A stretch of 20,000 nt of DNA from assembly GCF_004010195.1 (NCBI RefSeq), contig NC_057753.1:7604329-7624328 (forward strand). Direction: 5' to 3'. Position numbers and translations under genes: made by a program. Positions 1,406-20,000 of this stretch are shown here, piece after piece (the first letter of the stretch is position 1; each line of letters begins with the position of its first letter). This DNA comes from Chiloscyllium plagiosum. Lineage: Eukaryota. Below the pieces are notes generated by a model, which saw only the letters and a list, made by a program, of their open reading frames with translations, made no database searches and was not told the origin of the DNA.

Positions 1406-1623
1406 CAAAACAAATATGCACACCCTACCTGTAATCTCGCCATGTTGTTTCCTTCACTTTGTGATTAGACACACTTCTGGACATCTTTGTTAAATGCTAG
1501 TGGTTCACTTTCTCAATGAAGCCTTCTCTGCTTTTAAATATTATTTTCCTGCCTTCCCCTTGATTACTGACTCACTTTTACATGGGCATACTTTCGATTG
1601 CGACTTTAGAGAAGATGTAATTA

Positions 1624-3003
1624 CCCAGGTAATTATGGACCAGTGAGCCTTACTTCTGCTGTAGGAAATGTTTTGGAAAATATTATCAGAGATGAGATTT
1701 ATAATCATCTAGCAAGCACCAATTTGATTTCAGATTGTAAACATGGTTTCTTCAACGAAAGGTCGTGCCTCACAAACTTCACTGAGTTTATTGAGAAAGT
1801 GAACAAGAATGTAGATGAAGGTAGAGCGGTTGATATAGTATACATGGACTTCAGTAAAGCCTTTGATAAGCTTCCCAATGGTAGGCTGTTGGAGAAAATG
1901 AAGAGGCATTGGATTGATGGTAATTTAACAGATTGGATTAGAAACTGGCTTTCTGAAAGAAAGCAGCAACTTGTGGTTGATGGAAAATATTCAGCCTGGA
2001 GTCCAGTTAGGTGTGGTTTGGCACAAGGATCTGTTTTGGAAACACTGCTGTTTGTCATTTTTATAAATGACTTAGACGCAGGCATAAATGGACGGATTCG
2101 TAAATTTGCAGATGACTCTAAATTCGGTGGAGTAGTGGACAGTTTGGAAGAATGTGACAGATGGCAGGGGGCTTTAGATAAGCTACAGGATTGGGTTGAG
2201 AGGTAGCAAATGGAGTTCAATACAGCTAAACGTGAGGTGATTCATTTTGGGAAGAATAACAGGAAGGCAGAGCACTGGGACAAAGCAAAGACTCTTGGTA
2301 GTGTAAATGTGCAGAGGGATCTTGGAGTCCATGTACTTTGATCCCTAAAAGTTGCCACCCAGTTTGATAGTGTTGTCAAGAAGGCATGCGGTGTGTTAGG
2401 TTTCATTTGTAGAGGGATTGAGTTCCGGACGCGCAATATCATGCTGCAACTATACAAAACGCTGGTGCGGCCATATTTGGAATATTGCGTACAGTTGTGG
2501 TTGCCATATTTCGGGAAGGATGTGGAAACATTGGAAAAGATGCAGAGGAGATTTACGAGGATGTTACCTGGTCTGAAGGGGAGGTCTTATGAGGAAACGC
2601 TGAGAGACTTGGGTCTGTTCTCATTGGAAAGAAGAAGGTTAAGAGGGGATTGGATAGAGACATACAAGATGGTCAGGGGATTAGATGGGGTAGACAGTGA
2701 AAGTCTTTTTCCTCGGGTGATGTCATATTCTTGTACGAGGGGGCATAACTGCAAATTGAGCGGTGATAGATTTAAGACAAATGTCAGAGGCAAGTTCTTC
2801 ACTCAGAGAGTGATAATGGCGTGGAATGCCCTATATGCCAATGTAGTTAACTCAAACACATTACGGAGAGTGACACAATCCTTGGATAAGCACATAGATA
2901 ATGATGGGATAGTGTAAGCGGGCGAGCTGAGAATAGTTCACGGGTCGGCGTAACATCGAGGGACGAAGGGCCTGTTTTGCGCTGTATTGTTCTATGTTCT
3001 ATG
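1624..3003 (+). mobile_element. 5'-truncated CR1 LINE (RT domain, C-terminus and 3'UTR) with a 9-bp TSD
   Basis: ORFs 1643-2206 and 2393-2917 are in one frame, broken by stops at 2204 and 2338. Motifs: [55 protein letters not shown]. The tail is (ttctatg)n. 'atgtaatta' occurs at 1615-1623 and 3001-3009. Confidence 0.95.
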
Positions 3004-3336: not shown

Positions 3337-3470
3337 TGTACATGCTGGAGATCTGATACCAAAGCTGTTCTGATGAAGAGTCTCCAGATCTGACATGTTA
3401 ACTTTGCATTTGCTCTTCTGATGCTGCCAGAGCCGATGCGTTTCTTCAGCAATGTATGTTTTTGTTTGTG
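3337..3470 (+). mobile_element. Degenerate Penelope-like terminal-repeat fragment with a decayed hammerhead core
   Basis: ctgatga at 3370-3376, then a-gagtc..gatct-gaca-tgtt, then the 'gatgctgccaga..tttcttcagca' segment shared with other copies in the window. Confidence 0.55.
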
Positions 3471-5295
3471 GAAATTCCTGTTCTTGATACGTATAAAACT
3501 TCCCCTGCACTGTTGACTTCGACCTACAACTCCTACCAGTGTTTACTTCACCATGTTGTTTCAAAGCTCCCGATGAACTGTTTCTATGTAATCTGACGGA
3601 GATGGGCTCTGGCAGGATTAATGGCAGGTTCGGAGACATATTTTTTGAAGCCTGCATCGATGCTGACATCATCGTGCAATCGCTTCCTTGCTATCCCCAG
3701 GAGGAATGGCATGTTTCCCAGTGTATGTACACTTATGGTGGCGGAGTGAAGAAGGACAATGGTCTCCCTACAATACTATTTATTCCTCCAGTTATTGAAC
3801 AATTCAAATCTGGTTTGCATTTTTCATGCAGTTAGGTATCTTCTTGTGCCATGGTATCTTCTGTTGTCATGGTCTCTACCACTGGTCATGGGGGAAGAGG
3901 GAATCCTTCTGAAGCACAAGTCCATACAAGAGGTTGTTCATTATTATGCCCAGAATGCATTGTTGGCGGGCACCACTCGTTTCCCTGCCTGACACGTTAA
4001 GGGACAATCTCACAAACTGTGAAAAGTAGTTCCATTTGAAATGGTTGTTCAGCTGCACCATGGACTTTCAGGTACTGGTTCCAGGGATGCTGGTGAATTT
4101 CGGTAGCTTTGTTAAGGGACGAGCTGCTGTGGGAATGGCACACAGTAACGGGTGGCGGTAAACCAACATCATTCTCGCCACGAGGACTCGAAAGCAAATT
4201 AATGCCATGATTATTTGAGATCCACACAAGTTCGCTGTGGTAATCTCTTCATGCCGTCGCATCAGCTAGCACTTTTCAGACTATGTCTCCCCTGTGACAT
4301 TAAATCATATCGATTTTCCTGAATGTATTCGTCGAATTCCTCTTTTTTTTTGAGAATATAGCACACCATTCCTTTCTCTATCTTTTTTCACCATCAGGAC
4401 AGGTCCACTTGGCACTGTTTTATACAGTAAAGTAAGGATTGTACCTGGAATTACTTAACATTGATTGCAGAACCTGCGATATCTCATGTTATTTAGTGTC
4501 CGTAACTTCAAGGGAGCTAACGATTGCAATGAGACAGTGAGCAATTTTCTGTCCTCATAAACTTATATCCTATATCAAAGATATGAATGAATGGAACAAA
4601 CGTTCCAGACTAAATCTCTGGACGAAACTAGGATGGATAGGAATCTAAGTTATCAATGGGAAGTAGAGAACGTGTCAATGAATAACTAATGGCAACAATT
4701 GGTAGATGCAAAATTACATGGGTAATTGGATATGTCAATTTTTCAGGGACAAAACACGACTGTCTATTTCGTACATTGTGAGGTAAAGTATGACAAATTG
4801 GTACACTGTGTACTGGAAGTTTCACTTCTTCATGTTCCGAAATCAGAAATGTTGCTTCAAATCACCTGCTGATGTTCTCAGTGTTTCAATTCCCGTCTAT
4901 GCACAGGGCACGTTATAATGCGGTTGGTCGGAATTGGGTGTGATGTGGGCACAGATGTTTTGAACCGTGCATCAAGCAGAAGCTTTTACCAGCATGCCAT
5001 GCTTTTCTTCTAAGTGGAGACGTGAAGAGAGTACGAATGGTAGTTTGTTTGCACAGAGACGCTGTGGCTGCTACTGGGAGAGTAGGAATTGCTCAAAGTG
5101 ATATGCTGTGTATGGATGCGCTTCAGTATTAATGCAGTGATAGCGTTGACGGTGCAATCACAAGAATCAGAACATAAAATAAATGCATTGCAGTTGCAAC
5201 TGAAATACAAGGTCGTATCACATTCTCAATGCACCTCATAGAAATAGCCCAGATGCCATAAAACTAGATGAAACATTTGTTCATCATGTAAAAAC

Positions 5296-5421
5296 TCTTC
5301 AGGAATCCTGAAGAAGGGCTCATGCCCGAAACGACGATTCTCCTGCTCCTGACCTGCTGCGCTTTTCCAGCAACACATTTTCAGCTCTGATCTCCAGCAT
5401 CTGCAGTCGTCACTTTTTCCT
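5296..5421 (+). mobile_element. Short PLE-derived element with a hammerhead motif and a mini fold-back at its 5' end
   Basis: 'tcttcagga-a-tcctgaaga' inverted repeat at 5296-5314. The body is homologous to the copies at 10240-10331 and 19110-19216 and ends 'ccagcatctgcagtc..ttttcct'. Confidence 0.8.
5302..5341 (+). ncRNA. Minimal type I hammerhead ribozyme motif (cleavage triplet mutated GUC>GAC)
   Basis: ggaatc-CUGAAGA-A-GGGC(ucau)GCCC-GAAA-CG-AC-gauucu. Stem I ggaauc/gauucu pairs over 6 bp (one G-U) and stem II has 4 bp. Confidence 0.7.
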
Positions 5422-6272
5422 AGAAGACCAGGCCAGTGTACAGTTCAATGGATTAACAGTGGAATCGCGTGCTAACCACACTAGAGCATTGATCTCGAAG
5501 GTTGGGCAAGGTATATGACCAGAATGGAAAGCTTCGCAGCCCAATGTGGCTCCCAGATGTAACTATCTCTCTGTCTCGCTGTCTCTCTCCCTCTCTCTGC
5601 GTCTCCATGTCTTGCCATCAACTGTTTTTCTTTCTTATTCCCTGCCCCTGTTTCTCAGTGGCTTGCCTGCAGACAATGCTACTGTACCGCTCACTTCAAA
5701 ACGGCATTGTATCCAGAGTGGAACACTGTGCAAACCACACCTGACCAAAATAAGGAGATGCACAGTCCGTATATTGGTCGCCGAATGTAACTCCCTCTCT
5801 CTCTCTCCATCTAAGTCCGTGCTTCTCCATGTCTTCCCCGGCATTACATGCAGCCATTTCAAGCTTAACTGTCAAACTATGAATCATCCCCCATTGGATA
5901 GCATAGTAGAGTTTGACAATTTAAAACATTTATCACATTCCTGGCGTCAAACATTCACCATTCACCTTTCACCGCACAAATTAATCTAAAACCAGCCTGG
6001 AATGAAAACGAGATCTTTGCACAATCTGTTTGGTTCTCCACCTGGATAATCCTCACAATCTGTGCAATTGCGTTCACATGCTAGAACTCTCCGTATTTCT
6101 GGAACATCATATACGAGAGCATTTATAGTAATCCTTATTTTTTTTTGTTCATGCAATCCCTGCAACCACCTCTGCCTTTTGTTATCTCGTTTACTATTCA
6201 CACCTCTTCCGAAAATTCAACTTTCAGTATCTATGCAATCTTCTCCTGCCCTTTCAAACCTTCTAGACTGTA

Positions 6273-6772
6273 NNNNNNNNNNNNNNNNNNNNNNNNNNNN
6301 NNNNNNNNNNNNNNNNNNNNNNNNNNNNNNNNNNNNNNNNNNNNNNNNNNNNNNNNNNNNNNNNNNNNNNNNNNNNNNNNNNNNNNNNNNNNNNNNNNNN
6401 NNNNNNNNNNNNNNNNNNNNNNNNNNNNNNNNNNNNNNNNNNNNNNNNNNNNNNNNNNNNNNNNNNNNNNNNNNNNNNNNNNNNNNNNNNNNNNNNNNNN
6501 NNNNNNNNNNNNNNNNNNNNNNNNNNNNNNNNNNNNNNNNNNNNNNNNNNNNNNNNNNNNNNNNNNNNNNNNNNNNNNNNNNNNNNNNNNNNNNNNNNNN
6601 NNNNNNNNNNNNNNNNNNNNNNNNNNNNNNNNNNNNNNNNNNNNNNNNNNNNNNNNNNNNNNNNNNNNNNNNNNNNNNNNNNNNNNNNNNNNNNNNNNNN
6701 NNNNNNNNNNNNNNNNNNNNNNNNNNNNNNNNNNNNNNNNNNNNNNNNNNNNNNNNNNNNNNNNNNNNNNNN
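6273..6772. other. Assembly gap (500 N)
   Basis: Run of exactly 500 N, a typical scaffolding placeholder. True distance and adjacency across it are unknown. Confidence 1.
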
Positions 6773-7419
6773 CCCTGCTGCTTCCCTCCTGGGTACAACA
6801 CGTTTGTCCGGGTGGGGAAGGAAATAGGGATGTAATCGTGCTGGGAGCAGTAAGCTTGTAGAAGCAGATACTCAAAAGACAAGCAGTCCCTGTTCACTCC
6901 AAGCAGGGAATACAACATAGGTGCCTTGTTTCTTCTCTTCTTGTGTAAAAGTTAGTGGTTTTAACCGTTTGAACTGTTTCCAACGTGTAATACTCCCACA
7001 ATGACCAATGACTCGAACGCAATACTGGGGAAGTAGAGACACTCCCTGAGACAGAGATTTGATGTCGTCTGGTGCTGAGGACTTGTAGCCTGAGTTTTTT
7101 AGCTGCCTTTACTATGATATGGGATGGTGGAAAGTACGAATATATTTCTGAATGTGAGTTTCTATTTTCCTGTGTTGTTTCTCTCACTGCGTGCCCCTCT
7201 GACAGGCTTTTTCTGACTGGCAGTGATTAACCTGATGCACAGCTTGGCTTTACACAGGGGCTGGTGGTCAAAATCCCAGACCATCCCGGCAGTGTCACTG
7301 GTGAGAGCAGACAGAGTGCCACAGAGGCCTGTGGGATGTTGGTAATGAGGTGAAACTCACCAGAGCTCACTGGGAGAAACGATCCGTGAAATTCAGAGAA
7401 ATTTTGGTGTAAAACCGAG

Positions 7420-7680
7420 CCTGTGTTTTTCCTTATTGTGGGTGAGTCCGGAATTAGAGGGCACCGTTCTCGAATTAGGAGTTGCCTTTTCAGGATAAAG
7501 GGAGAGGAGAAGGGATTATTTTATTTTTGTCTCAGATGGTTGGGCGACTTTGGGACTCTATATCGCAGAAGGTGGTGGAGACGCAAGCAGTGAGTAGTTT
7601 CTAGGCACAGGTAGTTTTTTTTGTTTGGCAGTGGGATCAAAGTTAATCGGGAGTGGGTGGAAATTTGGGAATTGGAACTC
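7420..7680 (+). mobile_element. Degraded CR1 3' fragment
   Basis: Remnants of the SRTRGH..KIRG..FFSQRVV..LW..P.K.VE coding region (gagtccggaattagagggcac; ctttgggactc..cagaaggtggtggag). Boundaries are approximate. Confidence 0.55.
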
Positions 7681-7849
7681 AAGTGGAGTCAAAAAGCAGA
7701 GTGACCTGTATCTTCAGAAAAGTACCTGTATTTTATAAGTACCTGTATCTTCTAATGAGAACATTCTGTCTGGATGTATCACGACCTGGTATGGCAACTG
7801 TACCATTCAATATCGGAGACTGTTACAGAGAGTGGTGAACTTGACCCGG

Positions 7850-8211
7850 ACAGTCACAAAGGCCAACCTCCCATCTACCAGGCCCATTCTCAAGGAAAGG
7901 TCGCCAGCATTCTCAAAGAGCCATCCCACCCTGGCAATGCTTTTCTACAACCTCTACCATCGGGGAGAAGGTACAGAAACCTGAACACACGCACCAGCCG
8001 GTTTTGAAACAGTTTCTACCCAACTGTTGTTAGAATACTGAATGGACTCTCAAACTCTTAACATTCGCCTGTCCCTGTGTTTTTGTTTTTGCCGCTGTTT
8101 ACCTACTAATTACTATCTGTGCTACTTAACTCTGCGATCTGCCTGTATTGCTCGCAAGACAAAGCTTTTCACTGTGCCTCGGTACATGTGACAATAAATT
8201 CAATTCAATTC
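7850..8211 (+). mobile_element. Rex1/Babar-type LINE 3' end
   Basis: Translates as ASILKEPSHPGNAFLQPLPSGRRYRNLNTRTSRF*NSFYP, the typical Rex1/Babar C-terminal motif. The 3'UTR ends 'gacaataaattcaattcaattc'. Confidence 0.75.
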
Positions 8212-8259
8212 TAGTCATATGTCTGTTGGAAGCTGGGTAATTGAACTGAACGCAGATCA

Positions 8260-8420
8260 GCAATTGACCAAAGCTCCTGAGATAGCATGTTCCAATCCCA
8301 GGACCTCTGCTTTCCAGAAACACAAAGGGGGCAGACACGTGGGAATATCACTCCCAGGTCTCCACGTCATCTGACTTGGAAATCTATCCCCTTTGCTTCA
8401 ATGTCACTGGGTCAAATCTG
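8260..8420 (+). mobile_element. Degraded fragment of a second CR1-like LINE family (near its 3' end)
   Basis: Recognisable remnants 'ttccaatcccaggacctct', 'tgggaatatcact' and 'ctgacttggaaatctatc..gtcactgggtcaaatc'. Confidence 0.45.
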
Positions 8421-9026
8421 TCAGCCACACTCCTCACTTAAACCTCTGTTTCTGCCTGGAGGCCAATTAGCGCGTTCGGTTAAGTGCAGGGTGTCTTTCT
8501 CATTCCGACGTTAGTCTCAAAATGACTTACTTCACCTTCTCAGCTTATTTCAGTCGAAAAACAAATGGTAAATCGTCAGAAGGTGGTGACATTGGACTGA
8601 AATTTCTGGCGCAGGCCCATCTGCAGATCGTTGTTTATCCCCCCAGACATGGTCCAGGGACCGGTCACATGGTTAAAAGCACTTCTCTTTAACAGTTCGT
8701 AGACAAGGAGTCAAACAGCTCCAACAGAAGCTTTCCATTTAGAAGTGTCTCCTACAATTTCCTTTCACTGGAATGTCCATCAGCAATGGGCTGGCAAATG
8801 TACCACATCAAAGGTGGCTCATCCCAAGTCCCATTCGGTGCTTCATTCCTTCACTCTCAGTCACTTCCATACAATTTGACACGTCCCATTCTAGCTGCCG
8901 TCCTGTCACATTCATGAGCCCTGGAGAATATTATACCCAACGCTTAGAATATCGTTCAGACAGGATTCTGAGCTTTAATGCAATGGGTTTATTCGTTTTT
9001 TTTAATTTTATTTGGCATCTATTCCA

Positions 9027-9257
9027 GGCATGGTGGCTCAGCGGTTAGCGCTGCTGCCTCACAGTACCAGGGTCCCAGGTTCGATTCCAGCCTCGGGTGA
9101 CTGTCTGTGTGGGTTTCCTCCCAGAGTGCAAAGATATGCACATTAAGTGCAATCATCAGAGAGAAATGGGTCTGGGTGGGTTACTCTTCGGAGGGTCAGT
9201 GTGGACTTGTTGGGCCGAAGGGCCTGTTTCCATACTGTAAGGAATCTAATCTAATCT
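9027..9257 (+). mobile_element. tRNA-derived SINE (HE1/V-SINE type), internally deleted
   Basis: Box A tggctcagcgg at 9034-9044, box B ggttcgattcc at 9078-9088, CR1-like 3' end 'gggccgaagggcctgtttcc' and an (aatct)n tail. Confidence 0.85.
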
Positions 9258-9274
9258 TAAAGAAAAGGGGTAGT

Positions 9275-9552
9275 GCACGGTGGCTCAGTGGTTAGCACTG
9301 CTGCCTCACAGTGTCAGGGACTCGGGTTCAATGCCAGCCTCAGGCGACTGTCTGTGTGGAGTTTGTACATTCTCCCAGTGTCTGAGTGGGTTTCCTCCCA
9401 CAGTCCAAAGATGTGCAGGTTAGGGTGGATTGGCCATGCTAAATTGTCCCAAAATGTTAGCTGAATTAGTCAGGGGTAAATATAGGGTAGGGGAATGGGT
9501 TGGTGTGGACTTTTTGGGCCGAAGGGATTGTTTCCATACTGTAGGGAATCTA
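9275..9552 (+). mobile_element. tRNA-derived SINE (HE1/V-SINE type), second tandem copy
   Basis: gcacggtggctcagtggttagcactgctgcctcacag head, box B ggttcaatgcc, central 'gtgggtttcctcccacagtccaaagatgtgcaggttag' and the same CR1-like tail. Confidence 0.85.
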
Positions 9553-10100
9553 AAAAAAAATTCCTTACTCTTTTCCTGGTAGGTTGTACTTGGCATTGTT
9601 TTTATTTTAATCTTTGCCCAGTCTCAGATAGCTGACACGTTCACTTAATCTTCAGATGAATTTTGACTAATTTTAGTCGAAATTCAGGAATGGCCTAAAC
9701 TATTCCACAATTGTTTTTGTTAACTTCTGATTCTCTGCTTAAGCTTCGGGTAAATTTCCCACAAATGTTTAAGGTGTAAATTCACCTCAGTTTATGTTTC
9801 AGAAGCATTTATGCCCACATTTGATAGTTTTCATGTTGCTTTAACATCAGGGACAGTAGTGCTTGCTGTCAATTTTGACGTAACTGCCACAGCCCCTGTT
9901 CTGAAGCATTTTGTTTTGAATCACAACAAAGGATCTGAATGGTTAAGGCCCAATCTTTGTAAGTCAATGTTTTTCATTCAAGTCTTGTTCTGTCATCCCA
10001 GTCGTTAGGTTAATGAATTCATTTTTAAAATATCCACAATTCCTGTGGCAAAATTAGTCTGGAAACCATCATCACCTCTTTAAAACTGCACACTGGATCG

Positions 10101-10331
10101 AGGCAAACGTGAGGACTGCAGATGCTGGAGATTAGAGTCAAGATTAGAGTGGCGCTAGAAATGCACAGCAGCTCAGGCAGCATCCGAGGAGCAGGAAAAT
10201 CGATGTTTCAGGCAGGAGCCCTTCATCAGGAATCAATGCATTCCTGATGAAGGGCTCTTTCCTGAAACATTGATTTTCCTGCTCCTTGGATGCTGCCTGA
10301 GCTGCTGTGCATTTCCAGCGCCACTCCAATC
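10101..10331. mobile_element. Palindromic PLE-derived element with a hammerhead core in each arm
   Basis: Arms 10142-10233 and 10240-10331 (92 bp, 6 mismatches by manual alignment) around a 6-nt spacer. CUGAUGA is at 10244-10250 (+) and 10223-10229 (-). Confidence 0.85.
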
Positions 10332-10339
10332 ACAGACAG

Positions 10340-10850
10340 GATCTACTTGGCCATGAACAAGTCCTCAGGAGTGAGAGCTGAAATAACAATGCTGCAAGTT
10401 GGGTTTTGCTGGGCAGGCCGCGATGCCTACCATTTTCAGGTTGAGGAGAGCTCCTCTCCTACTTCTCCCTCCCCCCGTTATTTCCTTTCTGCTGACGGCC
10501 ATCCCTCGGCAAATCTTCCCCATCAGAGGAGCTGCTGGTGTGTCCGTCATGCAGCTGCCACTTCCCCTGATGCTGTGGAGGATGGGGTCCCGAAGTGGTT
10601 ATCTTCCCTTGAGCCCGTCATTCCCTCCTTCTCTCATTGACTGGTTTCCCGGGTGGAGGTGGATGGTTTGCTGGGACATTGCATTGCGATTGCTTCCTTC
10701 CTTTCCTCTCCTCACTTCAGGGTTCTTGCCTGGGGGTGGCACCTTCAGTATAGCGAGGGTCATCAGCTCATGTTGGAGCAGAGGAGCCCCCCCCCCCCCG
10801 TCCTCTGTTCTTGGGCAGGTCTTGTACACATCGTTGCCTCTTCAAACTCT
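10340..10850 (-). mobile_element. Possible degraded Tx1/L1-type ORF1 fragment
   Basis: Purine-rich minus strand. 'VYKTCPR' resembles the end of a zinc knuckle and is followed by a low-complexity charged region (GKWQLHDGHTSSSSDGED). No intact CCHC motif is present. Confidence 0.3.
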
Positions 10851-10856
10851 TTGGTC

Positions 10857-13800
10857 TGTTGTTGTTTTTAGGTAGTGAGTAGTCCCAGTCTTATCCGAAA
10901 GATGATATACAAATGCACACAGTTGTTAGTCAATCTGGGTAGTGACAGTCACAGACTGAACCAAAGGTGTTATATAAATGCACATTGTTATTGTTGTCTC
11001 TGAGCAGTGAGCAGTTCCAGTCTGAACCGAAAGTCGCTATCTAAATGCACACTTGTTGTCGGTGGGTAGTGAGCAGTTCCACTCTGAGCCAAACGCTGCT
11101 ATATAAATGCACTGTTTTGTTGTTGTTGTCTCTGGGCAGCGAGCAGTCCCAGCTTGAATCAAAGGGTGCTATATAAATGCACTCTGTTGTTATCTCTGGG
11201 TAGGAAGAACTCCCAGTCTCAATCAAGAGGTGCTATATAAATGCACACTTGTTCTTGTTGTCTGTTGGCAGTGGGCAATCCCAGTCTGAATCAAAAGGCT
11301 ATATCAATGCAGACTGTTGTTGTCTCTGGGCAGTAAAGCAGTCACAGTCTGAACCAAACGGTGATATATAAATGCACAATGTTGTTGCTGTCTCTGTGTA
11401 GTGAGCAGTCCCAGACTGAAGCAGAAGGTGCTATATCAATGCAGACTGTTATTGTCTCTGGGTAGTAAGCAGTTGCAGTCTGAACCAGAAGGTGCTATAT
11501 AACTGCACAATGTTGTTGTTTGCATCTGGGCAGTATGCAGTCCATGTCTGAACCAAAAGGTGCTGTATCAATGCAGACTGATGTTGTTGTTGTAGCAACA
11601 AAAGTTACTACATAAATGCACGCTGTTATTGTTGCCTCTGGGCAGTAAGCAGTCCCCGACTGAAGCAGAAGGAGCTATATCAATGCAGACTGTTGTTGTT
11701 GTTGTCTCTGTGTAGTGAGTAGTACCAGTCTGAAACAGAAGGTGCTATACCAGTGCAGGCTGTTGTTGTCGTCGTCTCTGGGTAGTGAACAGTCACTGTC
11801 TGAACCAAAAGGTGCTATATAAATGCACACTTGTTGTTTGCCTCTGGGCAGTGTGAAGTCCATGTCTGAACCAAAAGGTGCTATATCAATGCAGACTGAT
11901 GTCGTTGTTGTCTCTGTGTAGTGAGCAGTCCCAGTCTGAACCAAGAGGTGCTACATAAATGCACGCTGTAGTTGTTGTCTCCGGGCAGTATCAGTTCCAG
12001 ACTGAAGCTGAAGGAGTTATATCAATGCAGACTTGTTGTTGTTGTCTCTGTGTAGTGAGTAGTACCAGTCTGAAACAGAAGGTGCTATATCAATGCACAC
12101 TGTTGTTGTTGTCTATGCACTGTGAGCAGTCTCAGTCTGAAGCAAAGGGTGCTATATAAATGCACACTTGCTGTTTGCCTCTGGGCAGTGTGCAGTCCAT
12201 GTCAGAACCAAAAGGTGCTATAATCAATGCAGACTGATGTTGTTGTTGTCTCCGGGTATTGAGCAATCCCGGTCTGAACCAAGAGTCGCTATATAAATGC
12301 ACGCTGTTGTTGTTGCCTCTGGGCAGTAAGCAGTCCCAGACTGAAGCATAAGGAGCTATATCAATGCAGACTGTTGTTGTCGTAGTCTCTAGGTAGTGAA
12401 CAGTCACTGCCTGAACTAAAAGGTGCTATATAAATGCACGCCATTGTTGTATCAGAGCAGTAAGCAGTTGCCGTCTGAACCAAACGGTGATATATAAATG
12501 CATAATGTTGTTGTTGTCTCTAGGCAGTAAGCAGTCCCAGACTGAAGCAGAAGGTGCTATATCAATGCACACTATCGGTATTGTCTCTGGGCAATAAGCA
12601 GTCGCAGTCTGAACCAAACGGTGATATATAAATGCACAATGTTGTTGTTGTTTTTGGGCAGTGAGCAGTCCCAGACTGAAGCAGAAGGTGCTATGTCAAT
12701 GCAGACTTGTTGTTGTTGTCTCTGGGCAGTAAGCAGTCACAGTCTGAACAAAACTGTGCAATACCAATACACAGTGTTGTTGTTGTATGTGGGTAGTGAG
12801 CAGTCCCAGTCTGAATCAAAAGGTGCTATACAAATGCACACTGTTGTTGTCTCTGGGCAGTAAGCAGTCCCAAACTGAAGCAGAAGGTGCTATATCAATG
12901 CAGACTTGTTGTTGTTGTCTCTGGACAGTAAGCAGTCTCAGTCTGAATCAAACAGTGATATATAAATGCACAATGTTGTTGTTGTCTGTGGGCAGTGAGC
13001 AGTCCCAGATTGAAGCAGAAGGTGTTATATCAATGCCAACTACTGTTGTTGTTGTCTCAGGGCAGTGTACAGTCCCTGTCTGAACTGAAAGGTGCTATAT
13101 AAATGCACAATGTTGTTGTGTCTGGGCAGTGAGCAGTCCCAGTCTGAACAAAACGGTGCTATATAAATACACACTGTTGTTGTTGTGTGTGGGCAGTAAA
13201 CAACCCAGACTGAACCAGAAGTTGCTATATAAATAGACAGTGTTGTTGTCTTTAGGCAGTGGAGCCAACCCAGTCTGAAACAAACGGTGATATAGGAATG
13301 CACAATGTTGTTGTTGTTGTCTGTGGGCAGTGAGCAGTCCCAGACTGAAGCAAACGGTTCTATATCAATGCAGACTGTTGTTGTTGTCGTCTCTGGGCAG
13401 TGGGCAGTCCATGTCTGAACACAAAGGTGCTATATAAATGCAATGTGTTCTTGTTGTCTCTGGGTAGTGAGCAGTCCCAGTCTGAATCAAAAGGTGCTAC
13501 ATAAATGCACACAATGTTGTTGTCTGTGGACAGTGTGCAGTCCCGGTCTGAACCAGAAATTGCTATATCAATGCAGACTGTTTTTGTTGTTCTTGTCTCT
13601 GAGCAGTGAGCAGTCCCAGTCTGAACTAACAGGCGATATATAAATGCACAATCTTGTTGTTGTTGTCTCTGGGTAATGAGCCGTCAATGTCTGAATCAAA
13701 AAGTGCTATATCAATGCACAGTTTTGTTGTTGTTGTCTCTGTGGGCAGTGAGCAGTCCCAGTCTGAACAAAAAGGTGCTATATAAATACACACCGAGTTA

Positions 13801-14100
13801 TTGTTATTGTCTCTGGGCAGTGAGCAGTCCTGTTGTGAACCAAAAGGTGCTATATAAATGCACACTGTTGTTATCATCTCTGGGCAGTGAACAGTCCCAG
13901 TCTGAACCAAAAGGTCTTATATAAATGCACACTTGTTGTTGCATCTTGACAGTCAGCAGTCCCTGTCTGTGCATTTATATAAGACCTTTTGGTTCAGACT
14001 GGGACTGCTCATTGCCCAGAGACAACAGCAACAACAGTGTGCATTGACATAGTACCGTTTGGTTCAATATTGTTGTTGTTGTTGTCTCTGGGCAGTGAGC
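10857..14100 (+). repeat. Tandem satellite, ~66-70 bp unit, roughly 48 copies
   Basis: Consensus gtctctgggcagtgagcagtcccagtctgaaccaaaaggtgctatataaatgcacactgttgttgtt. Unit length varies with the (ttg)n tract. An inverted segment lies at 13968-14066. Confidence 0.97.
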
Positions 14101-14124
14101 CAGCGTGTACACACACCAGGGAGT

Positions 14125-14225
14125 TCATAAGTGAACCCAGTGCCCCATGGACTGCAGCAGTAGTTCCCCACCATCTTCTCAAGGGCAATGGGTGATAGAC
14201 AATAAATGCTGGCTCTTCCTCCATG
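14125..14225 (+). mobile_element. 3' end remnant of a CR1-like LINE
   Basis: 'catggactgcagcag..caccatcttctcaagggcaat..caataaatgctggc' matches my recollection of a common elasmobranch CR1-like 3' terminus. Confidence 0.5.
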
Positions 14226-14836
14226 AAATTATTCTAAATCAGGAGCTGAACGAGTTAGATTCTCTTGTTTTTGCTGCTCTCGTTTAAGGATATTTTTAAC
14301 ATGAAGCCATTGCATTCACAAAAGCAAAGGTTACAGAGTCAATTAAACCAATGCTTTGTCGAGAGAAGCTCTTCAGTCTGAGCTGATCATTTTGTCATGT
14401 GTTGTGGAGTCTGAGTCACGACACCCGACAGTGTCAGGGTTAAGACTGGCATGAAAGAGGACTGTGTGTAATCCTGCACTCGGTTCAGTACATTCCTGTC
14501 CATTTCCCTCTCCCTGGTGTCCCCTGCAGGTATGAAAGGAGTTTATCTGTACACCAGGTCAGAGGGCAAGATTCGCCAATTGCTCCAAACTGAAAACAAG
14601 GCCAAAGCTATAACTCGATTTCACTCAGAGGATTGTTCTGGACTGAAGATTCTGCATTCGTAATGCACACAGAAACTCAGCTACAAAGGAATTGTCTATC
14701 TCTCTCCTTGTCTGTCAGGGAAACTGTGTTGGACTGCGATTTACAGCTTTTCAATATGTTTCCTGAAAACTAAAATGGTCTGTTCTGAATTCCTAACCTC
14801 GGCTGACAGTGTTGACTTGACTAAACTCCTTCACAG

Positions 14837-15640
14837 GATATTAGAAGGGGAGGGTTCATGATTTGGAAACTCAATCTCACGTTAACATTAACAGAGCCTC
14901 AATCGATCAGGACTGGAATCCCATTGATCTTTGAAAGTGGAAGGAGAAATGTTTGCTCTGTCTGCGGGAGAATGGTTCAAATATCAGTGAAAATTGCTGA
15001 GAGACACACACACAATCTGAGTTAGTGGGTTGCAGTGCAGCGGTGACTGTGGAAGGAGCTTTAATCAGTCTCACAGTGTGAAAAACCCCTCCATCACACT
15101 GCTCCCAGCAGGGAGCCCCAGTACATGTGAGGGCATGTGAGTTCAGGGCTTCAACTGATTGTCCAACCTGGAGAAATGCAGAAACACTGGCACCAGGCAG
15201 AAACCTTGGAAATATGAACGCTGTAGGAAAGGATTCACTGGAAAGCCTTTGACGCAGTCCCACTGGAGAGAAACCGTGCATCTGTTCCCTATGTGGGAAG
15301 GGATTTACTCAGATATCTCCGTGATCTCTCACCAGAGAGTTCACACTGAGGAGTGACCCTGCAAAACTGCATTTCCCGTGAAAAAAAATTCAACAATTTA
15401 TCCCCCCTCACCGTACCCCAGTGAGCTCACACGGGGGAGAGAGGGTTCACTGGACCGGGTGGGGGAAATGATTCATTCAATCATTCGAGCTGGTCACACA
15501 GTGACCACACAGTGGGGAGACCATTCACCTTCCCTGTTTGTGCGGAAGGGTTCACTCCGTTGTTCCATTTCCTGTCACACCACCAGGTTCACACCGAGGA
15601 AAAACAATTCATCTGCTCTGCCTCTTGGAAGAGTTTTTAG
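14837..15640 (+). pseudogene. Decayed C2H2 zinc-finger gene exon (Krueppel-type tandem fingers)
   Basis: Acceptor 'tccttcacAG' ends at 14836. Finger and linker remnants: KPWKYERCRKGFT, TGEKPCICSLCGKGFTQ, HQRVHTEE*P and RPFTFPVCAEGFTPLFHFLSHHQVHTEEKQFICS. There are many stops, frameshifts and lost Cys/His residues. Confidence 0.85.
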
Positions 15641-15655
15641 GGAGTTATGCAAATC

Positions 15656-15741
15656 TGCTGGAGAAACTCAGCAAGTCTGGCAGCATCTGTGGAGGGAGAA
15701 ACAGGGTCAACATTTTATGTCCAGTGCCCCCTTCTTCAGAA
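15656..15741 (-). mobile_element. PLE terminal-repeat fragment with a decayed hammerhead core
   Basis: tgctggagaaactcagcaagtctggcagcatc... On the minus strand CUGAAGA is at 15733-15739, with a broken stem II and GAAA. Confidence 0.6.
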
Positions 15742-16477
15742 GCTCTCTGTAGAGTAACATCCTGAAACTGGGTAACGTGTGTGTCTGTGTGTGTGTGGGA
15801 GAGGGAATTTACTCCATTGTAATAATACCTGCTGAGATATCAGCCAGTCCAGAAGTGAAGGTTGGGTTCTGCTTCTGCTGCTAGTGCCCGTGTTAATCAT
15901 CCCGTAAACCTATTTAGTTTGTTCCAGCATCCATGAACAACCCTGTAACTGTCCAGAGGTTAATATTCTGGAAAGTCTTGCTGATTTGGTGGAGCTCAAT
16001 CTGAAATCTTTTCCCCTCGATGCAAAAAGATCATGTAAACATATTCACGGTAAAATTGTGAACTTTTACTTGGATTGCCAATGGACCAATGGTAGCAGAT
16101 ATACAATTCAGTCTCTGAAAGGCGGCACCGATGAACATCTCCAACGAGAAAGCGCTGATTAATCTTCACTGACAATTCTGGCTGATGGGCACATTCTTGA
16201 TTGTGGCAGGTCCACTCTGAAATGAAATCATGAAGGAGCATGAAACCGAATCAGGAAGTATTTTGCAGACACATCAACAAAACCTCATTGTTGTGGAGTG
16301 GGGGGTGGGGGAGGCTCACTACCAGTTCTTCAGTCTTACACTCGAATAGCTCTCCCCTGATTGCCCCAGACACTTGATCCCTGTTTCTCACCACCTCCCA
16401 CCCCCCACCTCTGCACTGTGGGCTCAGCAGCCCATCTCTGGTTTCTGTAGGTCCCCACCGATCCTCTGTAATCCCTG

Positions 16478-16665
16478 TGTGGTCTTACCAGACCATAGGG
16501 GCTGCTCTCTCATTAGAGAGAGAGATGCGAGAGGCGGTGTGTTAACCTGAAGTCCGGTGGCCCTCAGGCCAGGGAAGAGAAGTTGAGAAGGAGAGTCCTT
16601 CGTTGGAACCTCAAACCCACACTGCTGGCGTCACACCACTCTGTAAGCCAACTGAGCTAAACTGA
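16478..16665 (-). mobile_element. tRNA-derived SINE of a second family (degraded)
   Basis: The minus strand begins with a box A-like 'tagctcagttgg', has a partly deleted box B, and ends 'ctctctctaatgagagagcagcccctatggtctggtaagac'. Confidence 0.6.
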
Positions 16666-16849
16666 TTCCTATGCACATATAACAAAGCGGGGAGCTCCCA
16701 ATGGGTTTCCTGTACACAGTGGACTTGTCATTACAACTGAAAGTGAGTGTTTGTACTGGCTGAACGGAATCCTGTGCTCAACCCACAGACCCACCAGGTC
16801 CCTGAGCTTCCCATGTGACCGCGCAGATACAACAGCTGCACACACACTG

Positions 16850-17565
16850 ATGTAAAAGCAGTGATGTGCTACTAAGATGGTATAAAACTCTGGTTAGGCC
16901 CCATTTAGAATACTGTATCTAAATGTGGGCCCCACACCTCAGGAAGGACAGACTGGTACTGGAGTGTATCCAGCGGAGATTCACATGGATGATCCCTGGA
17001 ATGGTAGTCTAGATGAGAGTGGTGCTGGAAAAGCACAACAGGTCAGGCAGCATCTGAGGAGCAGGAAAATTGATATTTCTGGCAAAAGCCCTTCCATCAG
17101 GAATGGGCCTAACATACGATGAATGGCTGAGGAGCCTGGGATTGTATTCATAAGAGTTTAGAAGGTTGAGGGGAGATCTAATAGAAAATTACAAGATAAT
17201 GCATGGCTTAGAGAGGGTGGACGCTGGGAATTTGTTTCCATCAGGCAGGGATACTAGGACCCATGGGCACAGCCTTAAAACTAGAGGGGGTCAGTTTAGA
17301 ACGGAAATGAGGAGACATTTCTTCAGCCAGAGAGTGGTGGGCCCTGTGGAATTCATTGCCACAGAGCACAGTGGAGGCCGGGATGTTAAATGTCTTCAAG
17401 GCAGAGATTGATAAATTCTCAATCTCGCAAGGAATTAAGGGATATGGGGAGAGTGAGGGTAAGTGGTGTTAAAATACCCATCAGCCATGATTAAATGGCG
17501 GAGTGGACTCGATGTGTTGAATGGCCTTGCTTCCACTCCTGTTTCTTATGGCCTTATGGTCTTAT
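16850..17565 (+). mobile_element. 5'-truncated CR1 LINE, interrupted by a PLE-derived insert
   Basis: YKTLVRPHLEYC..WAPHLRKD, then RGDLIENYKIMHGLERVDAGNLFP..TRTHGHSLK..FFSQRVV. The tail is (cttatgg)n. Confidence 0.9.
17008..17104 (-). mobile_element. Single-arm PLE-derived insert with a degenerate hammerhead, inside CR1
   Basis: Homologous to the left arms at 10142-10233 and 19015-19105. It ends at 'catcaggaat', and CR1 coding sequence resumes on both sides. Confidence 0.8.
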
Positions 17566-17667
17566 AACTGTAGAGGGGCAGAGCAACATACAGACTGCAG
17601 TCCATCTGCCCAGTTGCAAATTTCCTTGAGGTAGGCTGTCTCAAAACAAATCAAGCGTAGTTTCTGT

Positions 17668-18115
17668 GAACATCACGGTTGAGTGACCCATCTTCAGAAT
17701 TGATGGGAGCGAGGAAAGGGTTGCTGTTTGTGCAGAAGATAGAGTAATGGCGGGGGGGGGGGGGGGGGTGCAGGGAGAAATAAGCAAGCAATAGGTGGGA
17801 ATAGATCCCAAAGAGAGAGAGAAAAACAGTTGGATCCACAGTGGTGTTGGGGGAGACCAGCTTGGTAAAATAAGGGTTACTCCTGAAACATTGACCTCTC
17901 CACCTCCTCATGCTACCTGGCATACTATGGTCTTCCAGCCTCCTGTTTGTCTACCTTGGATTCCAGCACCTGCAGTTTTTTTCTTATCTCTAACTTTGAT
18001 AAAATATTGTGGACTATTAGGTGTCACTCATACCAAAATGTGAACTCTGATTTTTCACCACAGATGCTGCCAGATTTGCTAAGATTTTCCAGCAATTTGT
18101 ATTTTTGTCTCCAAG
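17668..18115. mobile_element. Cluster of degraded PLE terminal-repeat fragments
   Basis: Minus-strand CUGAAGA at 17691-17697 with gggtca..cc stem remnants. Plus-strand 'cctgaaacattgac..atgct..ccagcacctgcag' lies at ~17880-17980 and 'cagatgctgccagatttgct..tccagca' at ~18037-18115. Confidence 0.5.
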
Positions 18116-18349
18116 TTGCAGCGCTTTTTCATTAGTCACTAAAAATGGGTTGCGTGTGGTAGCAGCCGAAATGAGGAGAAGGTCTAGTGGGGTTTGGGGT
18201 ATGAAGATATGGGAAAAGCTGTTCAATCCCTCAGATTGTTGACTTTCCTATTCATACACCCATACAGATACCTTTTTAAATGTTGTAATTTAATACTCAC
18301 TCACTGCTATTGGTTGGACTGATTTGCAGGTGCTGATGTTGGACTGGGG

Positions 18350-18492
18350 TGCACAAAGTTAAAAATCACACAACACCAAGGTATAGTGCATCAGATTTAT
18401 TTGGAAGCACTAGCTTTCGGAGCGCTGCTCCTTCATCAGGTAGTCGTGGAGTATTAGCTCAGAGGACACAATTTTTAGCAAAGGTTTACAGT
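18350..18492 (-). mobile_element. Penelope-like terminal repeat (second family), cut by the CR1 insertion at 18493
   Basis: 'aaaaatcacacaacacca..tttatttggaagcactagctttcggagcgctgctccttcatcagg' carries an intact hammerhead core. Confidence 0.7.
18408..18443 (-). ncRNA. Minimal type I hammerhead ribozyme motif, intact core
   Basis: Minus strand: cuac-CUGAUGA-A-GGAGC(agc)GCUCC-GAAA-GC-UA^gug. Stem II has 5 bp, stem III is the palindrome AGCU, the CUA triplet fits the NUH rule, and stem I uac/gug is short. Confidence 0.78.
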
Positions 18493-19015
18493 ATAGAACA
18501 TAGAAGAATACAGCGCAGTACAGGCCCTTCGGCCCTCGATGTTGCGCCGATCCAAGCCCACCTAACCTACACTAGCCCACTATCCTCCATATGCCTATCC
18601 AATGCCCGCTTAAATGCCCATAATGAGGGAGAGTCCACCACTGCTACTGGCAGGGCATTCCATGAACTCACGACTCGCTGAGTAAAGAACCTACCCCTAA
18701 CATCTGTCCCCCCCTTAATTTAAAGCTATGCCCCCTTGTAATAGCTGACTCCATACGTGGAAAAAGATTCTCACTGTCGACCCTATCTAAACCCCTAATC
18801 ATCTTGTACACCTCTATCAAGTCACCCCTAAACCTTCTTTTCTCCAAGGAAAACAACCCCAAGTGCCTCAGCCTTTCCTCATACGATGTTCCTACCATAC
18901 CAGGCAACATCCTGGTAAACCTCCTCTGCACCCGTTCCAGTGCCTCCACATCCTTCCTATAGTATGGTGACCAAAACTGCACACAATACTCCAGATGTGG
19001 CCGCACCAGAGTCTT

Positions 19016-19216
19016 GGATCAGTGGTGCTGGAAGAGCACAGCAATTCAGGCAGCATCCGAGGACAGGCAAAATCGACGTTTCGGGCAAAAGCCCTTCATC
19101 AGGAATCCTGAAACGTCGATTTTGCCTGTCCTCGGATGCTGCCTGAATTGCTGTGCTCTTCCAGCACCACTGATCCAGAATCTGGTTTCCAGCATCTGCA
19201 GTCATTGTTTTTACCT
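19016..19216. mobile_element. 201-bp palindromic hammerhead-bearing insertion with a 14-bp TSD
   Basis: 'cgcaccagagtctt' at 19002-19015 and 19217-19230. The inverted arms 19015-19082 and 19110-19177 are identical over 68 bp. Confidence 0.93.
19069..19108 (-). ncRNA. Minimal type I hammerhead ribozyme motif, intact core
   Basis: Minus strand: ggauuc-CUGAUGA-A-GGGC(uuuu)GCCC-GAAA-CG-UC^gauuuu. The triplet is GUC and stem III is the palindrome ACGU. Stem I is imperfect. Confidence 0.8.
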
Positions 19217-20000
19217 CGCACCAGAGTCTTATACAACTGCAACATGACCTCAGGACTCCGGAACTCAATTCCTCTACCAATAAAAGCCAGTACGCCATAT
19301 GCCTTCTTCACCGCACTATTTACCTGGGTGGCAACTTTCAACGATCTGTGTGCATGGACACCAAGATCCCTCTGCTCATCCACACTACCAAGTATCCGAC
19401 CATTAGCCCAGTACCCCATCTTCTTGTTACTCTTACCAAAGTGAATCACCTCACACTTAGCTACATTGAACTCCATTTGCCACCTTTCTGCCCAGCTCTG
19501 CAGCTTATCTATATCCCGCTGTAACCTGCCACATCCTTCCCCACTGTCTACAACTCCTCCGACTTTCGTATCATCTGCAAACTTGCTCACCCAACCTTCT
19601 AACCACTCCTATAGGTCATTTATAAAAATGACAAACAGCAATGGTCCCAAAACAGATCCTTGCGGAACACCGCTAGTGACGGCACTCCAAGATGAACCTT
19701 TGCCATCAACTACTACCCTCTGTCTTCTTTCGGCCAGCCAACTCCTAATCCAAACCTCCAACTCACCCTCAATGCCATACCTCCGTATTTTTTGCAGTAG
19801 TCTACCATGGGGAACCTTATCAAACGCCTTACTAAAATCCATATACACCACATCTACCGCTTTCCCCTTGTCCACCTCCTTAGTCACCTTCTCAAAGAAT
19901 TCAATAAGGTTTGTGAGGCACGACCTGCCCTTCACAAAACCATGCTGACTATCCTTGATCACATTATTCCTATCCAGATGTTCATAAACCCTATCCCTTA

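Follow-up and report, generated by a model that had tools for sequence, protein, structure and literature searches.

An earlier note on a 20,000-nt stretch of the Chiloscyllium plagiosum genome (contig NC_057753.1, positions 7,604,329 to 7,624,328; the whole of this stretch is hereafter termed the window) reported about nine hammerhead ribozyme cores and took them as signs of a very large ribozyme load. This raises the question of whether the sites represent working ribozymes, chance matches to a short motif, or parts of mobile elements. We assign a probability of about 85% to the reading that they are two intact and seven decayed minimal type I hammerheads, which head retrotransposed ends (pseudo-long terminal repeat, pLTR, plus tail) of Penelope-like elements (PLEs), and which are likely inert in place. 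The class of motif is known; the lineage is new and the load very large, and a fresh detail is the poly(A) tail found on RNA of one of the repeat families just after the uncut motif.

Hammerhead cores and their state

Enumeration of all CUGANGA cores on both strands confirmed the sequence CUGA(U/A)GA at eight of the nine sites, namely 3370+, 5308+, 10229-, 10244+, 15739-, 17697-, 18439-, and 19102-. Minus-strand sites had previously been listed by the low end of the 7-nt core; they are named here by C3, which is located 6 nt higher, so that 17094 becomes 17100-. The core at 17100- reads CUGAUGGA and contains one extra G, in agreement with its description as degenerate. The count of about nine cores hence holds for the placement of CUGANGA at eight sites, but the ninth is irregular, and only two of the nine matched a strict minimal-hammerhead descriptor (core, stem II of at least 4 bp, GAAA, palindromic helix III, UH, and stem I of at least 2 bp). 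These two matches, 18439- and 19102-, compare with a shuffle mean of 0.003, and none of 300 shuffles reached two. A relaxed descriptor additionally accepted 10229- and 10244+ (four of nine sites; shuffle mean 0.027, with four matches reached in 0 of 300 shuffles), leaving five sites as relics.

The bare core occurred 30 times in the window, compared with 14.9 +/- 3.6 times in 300 dinucleotide shuffles, and about half of these occurrences are chance-level noise; the extended motif CUGA(U/A)GAAGG was found six times, as compared to 0.16 in 300 such shuffles. An origin of the sites as chance matches to a short motif would fit this background of bare cores and the weakness of site 17697-. However, neither descriptor count was attained by any shuffle, and the sites head alignable repeat families; chance is extremely improbable as a general explanation, and it was rejected for eight of the nine sites. 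Descriptor matches far above the shuffles support a hammerhead-type structure.

Both intact copies, 19102- (stem II GGGC/GCCC, helix III ACGU, triplet GUC) and 18439- (stem II GGAGC/GCUCC, helix III AGCU, triplet CUA), possess the G10.1-C11.1 pair and a palindromic helix III, which most relics lack, and carry an extra nucleotide after A9. This nucleotide is A at seven of the eight sites with a regular core, as had been noticed for nearly all of them, and U at 17697. The other seven of the nine copies are damaged: at 10229- and 10244+, the helix III palindrome is gone (ACAU) and stem II contains G-U or mismatched pairs; at 5308+, stem II is perfect and the U preceding the cleavage site (U16.1) is changed to A; core and stem II are both broken at 17100-; and GAAA is lost at 3370+, 15739-, and 17697-. 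The swapped stems, the ACGU and AGCU palindromes, and the GUC and CUA triplets described in the earlier note are indeed present in the intact copies, but one intact copy stands behind each of them (stem II GGGC/GCCC is found in two copies). A scan against Rfam retrieved no hammerhead family match at E <= 10. Matches to miRNA-type hairpins of Rfam at the inverted pairs remained below the gathering scores and were rejected as inverted-repeat artefacts.

Repeat families and their edges

Alignment and blastn searches resolved three dispersed repeat families of about 100-130 nt, designated A, B, and C, which are headed by the sites (Table 1); the motif rides on distinct repeat families, as proposed before. 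Family A comprises 5308+, 10229-, 10244+, 17100-, 19102-, the core-less copy 19107+, and the distant copy 17880+. Family B consists of 3370+, 15739-, the core-less copy 18035+ and, tentatively, 17697-, and family C is represented by 18439-. Families A and B have a downstream block in common. Three core-less members (17880+, 18035+, and 19107+) were thus recognized by alignment and blastn beyond the nine sites. The 17697- unit lacks a blastn link to other copies in the window; the pyrimidine-rich stretch upstream of it is repeated at modest depth in the sequence data described below. Ten units account for 1,457 of the 20,000 nt, or about 7% of the window.

Table 1. Hammerhead-bearing units, core-less relatives, and target duplication in the window
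Feature	Coordinates	Strand	Remarks
Family B relic, core 3370, GAAA lost	3367..3470	+	
Family A, core 5308	5296..5420	+	Short inverted repeat of head; U16.1 changed; 12-nt downstream deletion
Family A, core intact, helix III palindrome lost	10102..10233	-	Descriptor and alignment
Family A twin, head-to-head inverted, core intact, stems II/III damaged	10240..10331	+	Inverted repeat 92 nt, 93%
Family B relic, core 15739, stem II and GAAA lost	15645..15742	-	
Family A, broken core, inside CR1-type piece	17006..17104	-	7-bp direct repeat at edges, within chance
Weakest site, core 17697, GAAA lost	17660..17870	-	Tentative family B; preceded by pyrimidine-rich repeated stretch (76% C+T)
Family A-like, core-less, distant	17878..17990	+	
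Family B, core-less	18033..18125	+	
Family C, intact minimal hammerhead	18320..18495	-	Core 18439-18433; predicted cut after 18411; AAUAAA 18401-18396; poly(A) site 18382; GU-rich stretch downstream; tail to 18320
Target-site duplication, left copy, 14 bp	19002..19015	+	Right copy 19217-19230
Family A, intact minimal hammerhead	19016..19106	-	Core 19102-19096; stem II 19094-19083; predicted cut after 19075; 5' edge at 19106, common to other copies
Family A twin, core-less, head-to-head inverted	19107..19216	+	99% complementary to 19016..19106 partner

The start position of family A is identical in all five core-bearing copies of the window. From the start of stem II, the 3' edge is reached after 112 nt in family C, 117-120 nt in the family A copy at 10221, and 119 nt in the family A twin at 19107. 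In the family C copy at 18320..18495, about 45 nt upstream of where this family usually begins (5' edge at 18441-18451) are still present. Two family A pairs are arranged head-to-head, one in the region 10102-10331 and the other at 19016-19216; the latter sits inserted within a CR1-type long interspersed nuclear element (LINE) and is framed by an exact 14-bp target duplication, the best score in 150 random edge pairs being 9. Repeat searches revealed no head-to-tail tandem hammerhead units in the window. The core-less A-type copies at 19107 and 17880 start just before GAAA with CCUGA, which may reflect CpG decay or a microhomology jump across the stem II hairpin.

Abundance and junctions in sequence data

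The segment 17600-19112 was compared, at 80% likeness, with two DNA contig sets (organisms A and B), with raw poly(A) RNA (a single-cell run, 2% of which was read), and with putative RNA contigs; figures for loose ends and joints hold among those listed. In run X1, the locus-specific bin had a summed depth of 19 (locus contigs 4-5), compared with 1.7-2.2 million for family C, 3.7-5.1 million for family A, and 1.0-3.4 million for the CR1 piece. The depth ratios correspond to about 9x10^4 to 5x10^5 copies of family C and 2x10^5 to 1x10^6 copies of family A, where summed contig depth is no copy number and serves for the order of magnitude only. This order of magnitude agrees with the density within the window and is similar in organism B. 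As far as repeat copies are concerned, the very large genomic load that had been predicted is thus found, with roughly 10^5-10^6 copies each of families A and C as judged from contig depth.

Loose ends with unlike flanks (agreement 0.32-0.44) cluster at 19106, four bases before the family A core, in all four runs (1151, 1034, 519, and 149 records). Loose ends of family C occur at 18441, in three of the four runs listed, and at 18451, with the 3' edge at 18320. Depth on family C drops 173-, 199-, and 72-fold from 18445 to 18455 in three contig sets, which is in part due to the divergence of the upstream stretch of the 18439- copy. In two DNA runs, opposite strands were joined at 19106 (15 and 19 contigs) as well as at 18439-18444; family C joints going back 84 (4 and 7 contigs) hint at rare tandems elsewhere.

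The accumulation of 5' ends might mark a break point, at which polymerase drop-off or a GIY-YIG nick upstream of the hammerhead fold was sealed via microhomology. Family A begins exactly at ATT (19106), the motif at which the PLE nuclease of the anole cuts (PMC11167929), and the target flank overlaps the element head at 17100-. The family C edge, in contrast, lacks ATT and is located 26-36 nt after the TATA-like motif of long copies, and if the fold stalled a polymerase, synthesis should halt before, rather than after, the hammerhead is copied. We therefore regard a break point as a somewhat unlikely origin of the common edge.

RNA of families A and C

In 422 raw RNA reads, a T run precedes 18382, which corresponds to a poly(A) tail on the hammerhead strand of family C, 14 nt after AAUAAA and 29 nt after the predicted cut. 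Since the DNA following 18382 is GU-rich and not A-rich, internal priming is unlikely. Over the family C motif, first mates on the plus strand outnumbered those on the other strand 5:1; first-mate depth at 18442 amounted to 90% of that at 18395, indicating that family C RNA spans the predicted cut site without having been cleaved there. Neither starts nor ends of RNA reads piled up in one poly(A) library, a preparation that is poor at capturing cut products, and no joint circularised at the cut site was among the joints listed in the poly(A) RNA run, which would miss circles. Family A RNA was present from both strands in similar amounts, whereas family C RNA derived mainly from the hammerhead strand. 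A family C variant with AUUAAA instead of AAUAAA was represented by 478 RNA reads (run X21, 18396-18408; agreement 0.95).

Upstream of 18451, 585 RNA reads extend in common sequence (agreement 0.71), with TATAAAT located 26 nt before 18451, and 359 RNA reads extend from 18441 into unlike sequence, which suggests host transcripts entering solo copies.

Alternatively, the units of about 130 nt might be self-standing, non-autonomous elements, comparable to short interspersed nuclear elements (SINEs) or solo retrozymes, which have masters of their own and are mobilised in trans by PLE proteins, rather than by-products of RNA from the autonomous element. The constant position of both their edges and their very high copy abundance would agree with such a lifestyle, as would the proposal that animal retrozymes, found in the single chondrichthyan genome sampled, are non-autonomous pLTR derivatives (bioRxiv 10.64898/2026.07.22.740005). 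However, the copies have their start ahead of the core, whereas a processed retrozyme RNA would begin at the cut site; some copies are longer and include upstream sequence (18451-18495, as well as the 585 RNA reads with the TATA-like motif); and neither head-to-tail hammerhead tandems in the window nor a pile-up of RNA starts and ends were found. Self-standing elements are thus an unlikely source of the repeats.

Covariation, decay, and folding

The masters of families A and C differ coherently in stem II (GGGC/GCCC vs. GGAGC/GCUCC), in helix III (CG vs. GC), and in stem I, and the covariation consists of this single contrast. Within the five family A copies, the covariation score was 0.089 vs. 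0.075 in shuffles, with 290 of 500 shuffles scoring equal or higher. In these copies, 86.7% of the cells pair, and a double change affects one pair; most changes break pairs, with losses centred on CpG positions. Because covariation within the family is lacking and pair-breaking changes fall on CpG sites, the family A copies are decaying and not maintained. The idea that covariation supports a real RNA structure therefore stands for the contrast between masters, but not among the five copies of family A: the structure is selected in the masters, and individual copies decay.

Using ViennaRNA, neither intact copy folded as a hammerhead, singly or as homodimer. Single-strand folding of the nine sites likewise gave no hammerhead fold (z of -2.1 to +1.6), a result that is uninformative for a dimer-type motif. 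The head-to-head pairs fold as hairpins of -155 to -177 kcal/mol, which bury the motif, and the two motifs of a pair are on opposite strands. Single minimal motifs of the published class showed no monomer cleavage in vitro, and multimers cleaved weakly (PMC4209133). The view that the genome holds many functional ribozymes, kept by selection to cleave host transcripts, would have in its favor the two intact copies and the presence of RNA, from both strands for family A and mainly from the hammerhead strand for family C; given seven damaged copies out of nine, the lack of covariation within a family, the failure of the intact copies to fold, the burial of the motif in hairpins, and the in vitro inactivity of single motifs, it is very unlikely. 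The step from copy density to a load of ribozymes, taken in the earlier note, is overstated in view of the damage to most copies and the missing monomer cleavage of intact class members.

Origin of the repeats

Since no frame for a PLE reverse transcriptase (RT) or GIY-YIG domain was found among the frames of the window that were searched, we infer the membership of families A, B, and C in PLEs, which is likely, from the features of the units themselves. The head-to-head inversions, the 14-bp target duplication, and the 3' ends at 112-120 nt past stem II are consistent with PLE biology. Several observations weigh against this assignment. Target duplication exceeded chance in one of ten units; the other nine had none above that level. 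The AUG in the core opens just 17 (family A) or 8 (family C) codons, whereas the open reading frame (ORF) of PAc, the Poseidon element of Anolis carolinensis, starts at stem II (PMC11167929). Pfam searches with 129 of the 283 stop-free frames of at least 35 aa detected no PLE RT or GIY-YIG domain, the three matches all being RVT_1 of CR1 type, and no protein gene was found. Scans for exact patterns in three collections (viral, metagenome, and prokaryote sequences) yielded 0 loci in which a link to an autonomous PLE might have been sought.

If the units are PLE ends, a PLE protein with RT and GIY-YIG domains would prime in the tail, about 110-120 nt downstream of stem II, and copy the uncut hammerhead. 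Synthesis would mostly halt shortly after stem I, at a stop point 4-12 nt upstream of the core, which would probably correspond to the start of the template RNA. An RNA start is the simplest reason for the common 5' edge; it is backed by the TATA-like motif of family C, and barely by the weak test for the initiator motif YYANWYY, which was present at the 5' edge of only two of nine sites, in one case supplied by target DNA. In the parent element, cleavage by the motif may require either a dimer or the element protein. Fold-back at the stop point would give rise to head-to-head twins, the transcripts of which would be long hairpins that bury the motif, and inserted copies would decay neutrally, CpG sites first.

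Tentatively, the PLE hammerhead may even be located in an LTR-like R region; transcription would begin with stem I, a working poly(A) site would follow 29 nt past the cut, and the hundreds of thousands of solo copies would be strong-stop-like cDNAs which extend from the internal priming site to the cap and were inserted without jumping. We consider this placement possible rather than probable. If it is true, the element would replicate through an LTR-style end-to-end template jump, and the cap or poly(A) ends would be what its ribozyme acts on; about 10^5 poly(A) signals would have spread genome-wide with family C, some of them ending host transcripts. A testable model of PLE RNA ends and of the origin of solo repeats emerges from three features: the fixed 5' edge, a 3' edge that agrees with the point where priming was mapped biochemically, and polyadenylation shortly past the cut. 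The main value of the finding concerns annotation, as about 7% of the window consists of these units and Rfam is blind to the motif.

Other features of the window

A tandem array at 10856-13969 comprises about 47 copies of a 67-bp unit, with inverted copies at its end (13968-14100), and lacks a hammerhead core. Adjoining SINE-like repeat copies with a tRNA-like head are located at 9028-9260 and 9275-9553; ARAGORN predicted 0 tRNAs in the window. Broken pieces of CR1-type LINE RT genes, 73-78% alike, occupy 1610-2917 (+) and 18460-20000 (-). Homologs of the LINE RT of the window are vertebrate CR1-like RTs; the best ones (P0001 and P0002, 87-90% identity) lie on 627-nt contigs labelled Proteus mirabilis, which likely represent animal DNA in a bacterial assembly. 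Decayed, zinc-finger-like repeated stretches were seen by eye at 15080-15640, where Pfam gave no match, and 6273-6772 is an assembly gap (500 N).

Comparison with known systems

Minimal hammerheads in pLTRs of metazoan PLEs were described in 2014 by Cervera and De la Pena, with the consensus CUGANGAH-G..C-GAAAN-palindrome-NUH (PMC4209133). The intact copies have the same type I topology, CUGANGA and GAAA, the extra nucleotide that separates position 9 from 10.1, the G10.1-C11.1 pair, and the palindromic 15.2-16.2 (PMC4209133); both peculiarities pointed out in the earlier note, an additional A and a helix III that is a palindrome, are accordingly published traits of the class. In both cases, several families occur per genome, mostly as solo copies, besides opposite-strand pairs. 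Among the entries of Fig. S3 of that paper, 19102- is nearly identical to those of Nematostella and Acropora, and 18439- resembles those of Marsupenaeus and a turtle; neither Fig. S3 nor Table S1 contains a chondrichthyan. PLEs as such have been reported from all sampled vertebrates, including the elephant shark (PMC4350176). Descriptor counts of about 4,000 in coelacanth and 9,000 in Xenopus were given (PMC4209133); the families described here appear 10-100 times commoner, where relics are being compared with descriptor hits. The accessible text of PMC4209133 contains no discussion of common 5' edges or poly(A), and 0 occurrences of "polyadenylation signal" or AATAAA. Inspection of its Fig. 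S3 by eye, with no control, revealed AAUAAA within about 15 nt past the cut in 9 of 56 rows, the flanks being AU-rich, and, in several published PLE hammerheads, an initiator-like UCA(G/U)U directly preceding stem I.

For PAc, Frangieh et al. 2024 (PMC11167929) found reverse transcription to start 111-118 nt into the ORF, whose first position is at stem II; this compares with the 112, 117-120, and 119 nt from the start of stem II to the 3' edge observed here. Mainly uncut PAc RNA is copied, and the ribozyme cleaves only with the protein; PAc and the repeats of the window are alike in uncut RNA and, here for a poly(A) library poor at capturing cut products, in the lack of RNA reads ending at the cut site (PMC11167929). 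Neighbouring copies that are inverted and 5'-truncated characterise PLEs (PMC8557442, PMC3846280) and are represented here by two pairs in the window and by the opposite-strand joints in two DNA runs. A TATA motif plus initiator is present in a rotifer pLTR; head-to-head inversions were reported as well, and solo pLTRs were ascribed to recombination or deletion (PMC3846280). PLE tails have also been described, and the role of PLE hammerheads was stated to be unclear (PMC8557442). Unlike the RNA-start model proposed here, Drosophila Penelope has an internal, TATA-less promoter with an intron (PMC2377424). Animal non-LTR retrozymes share with our repeats the non-coding nature, the type I hammerhead, and the relation to pLTRs, but they form head-to-tail tandems, in one chondrichthyan genome sampled as well, whereas the repeats of the window are dispersed singles or head-to-head pairs (Li, Clavereau, Pollet 2026; bioRxiv 10.64898/2026.07.22.740005). 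In the literature covered, which included few subscription papers, we found no published account of shark hammerhead ribozymes, of a strong-stop or start-site origin of solo copies, or of a pLTR poly(A) signal beside a hammerhead.

LTR retroelements contain an R-U5 region and produce minus-strand strong-stop DNA. No tRNA primer site, TG..CA ends, or integrase came to light here, where no search was aimed at them. By analogy, and not by membership, family C resembles this arrangement in having a TATA-like motif, a likely start of the RNA, both signal and site for poly(A) addition, and a short tail in which reverse transcription likely starts, and its short copies span exactly the distance from start to tail, like LTR strong-stop DNA.

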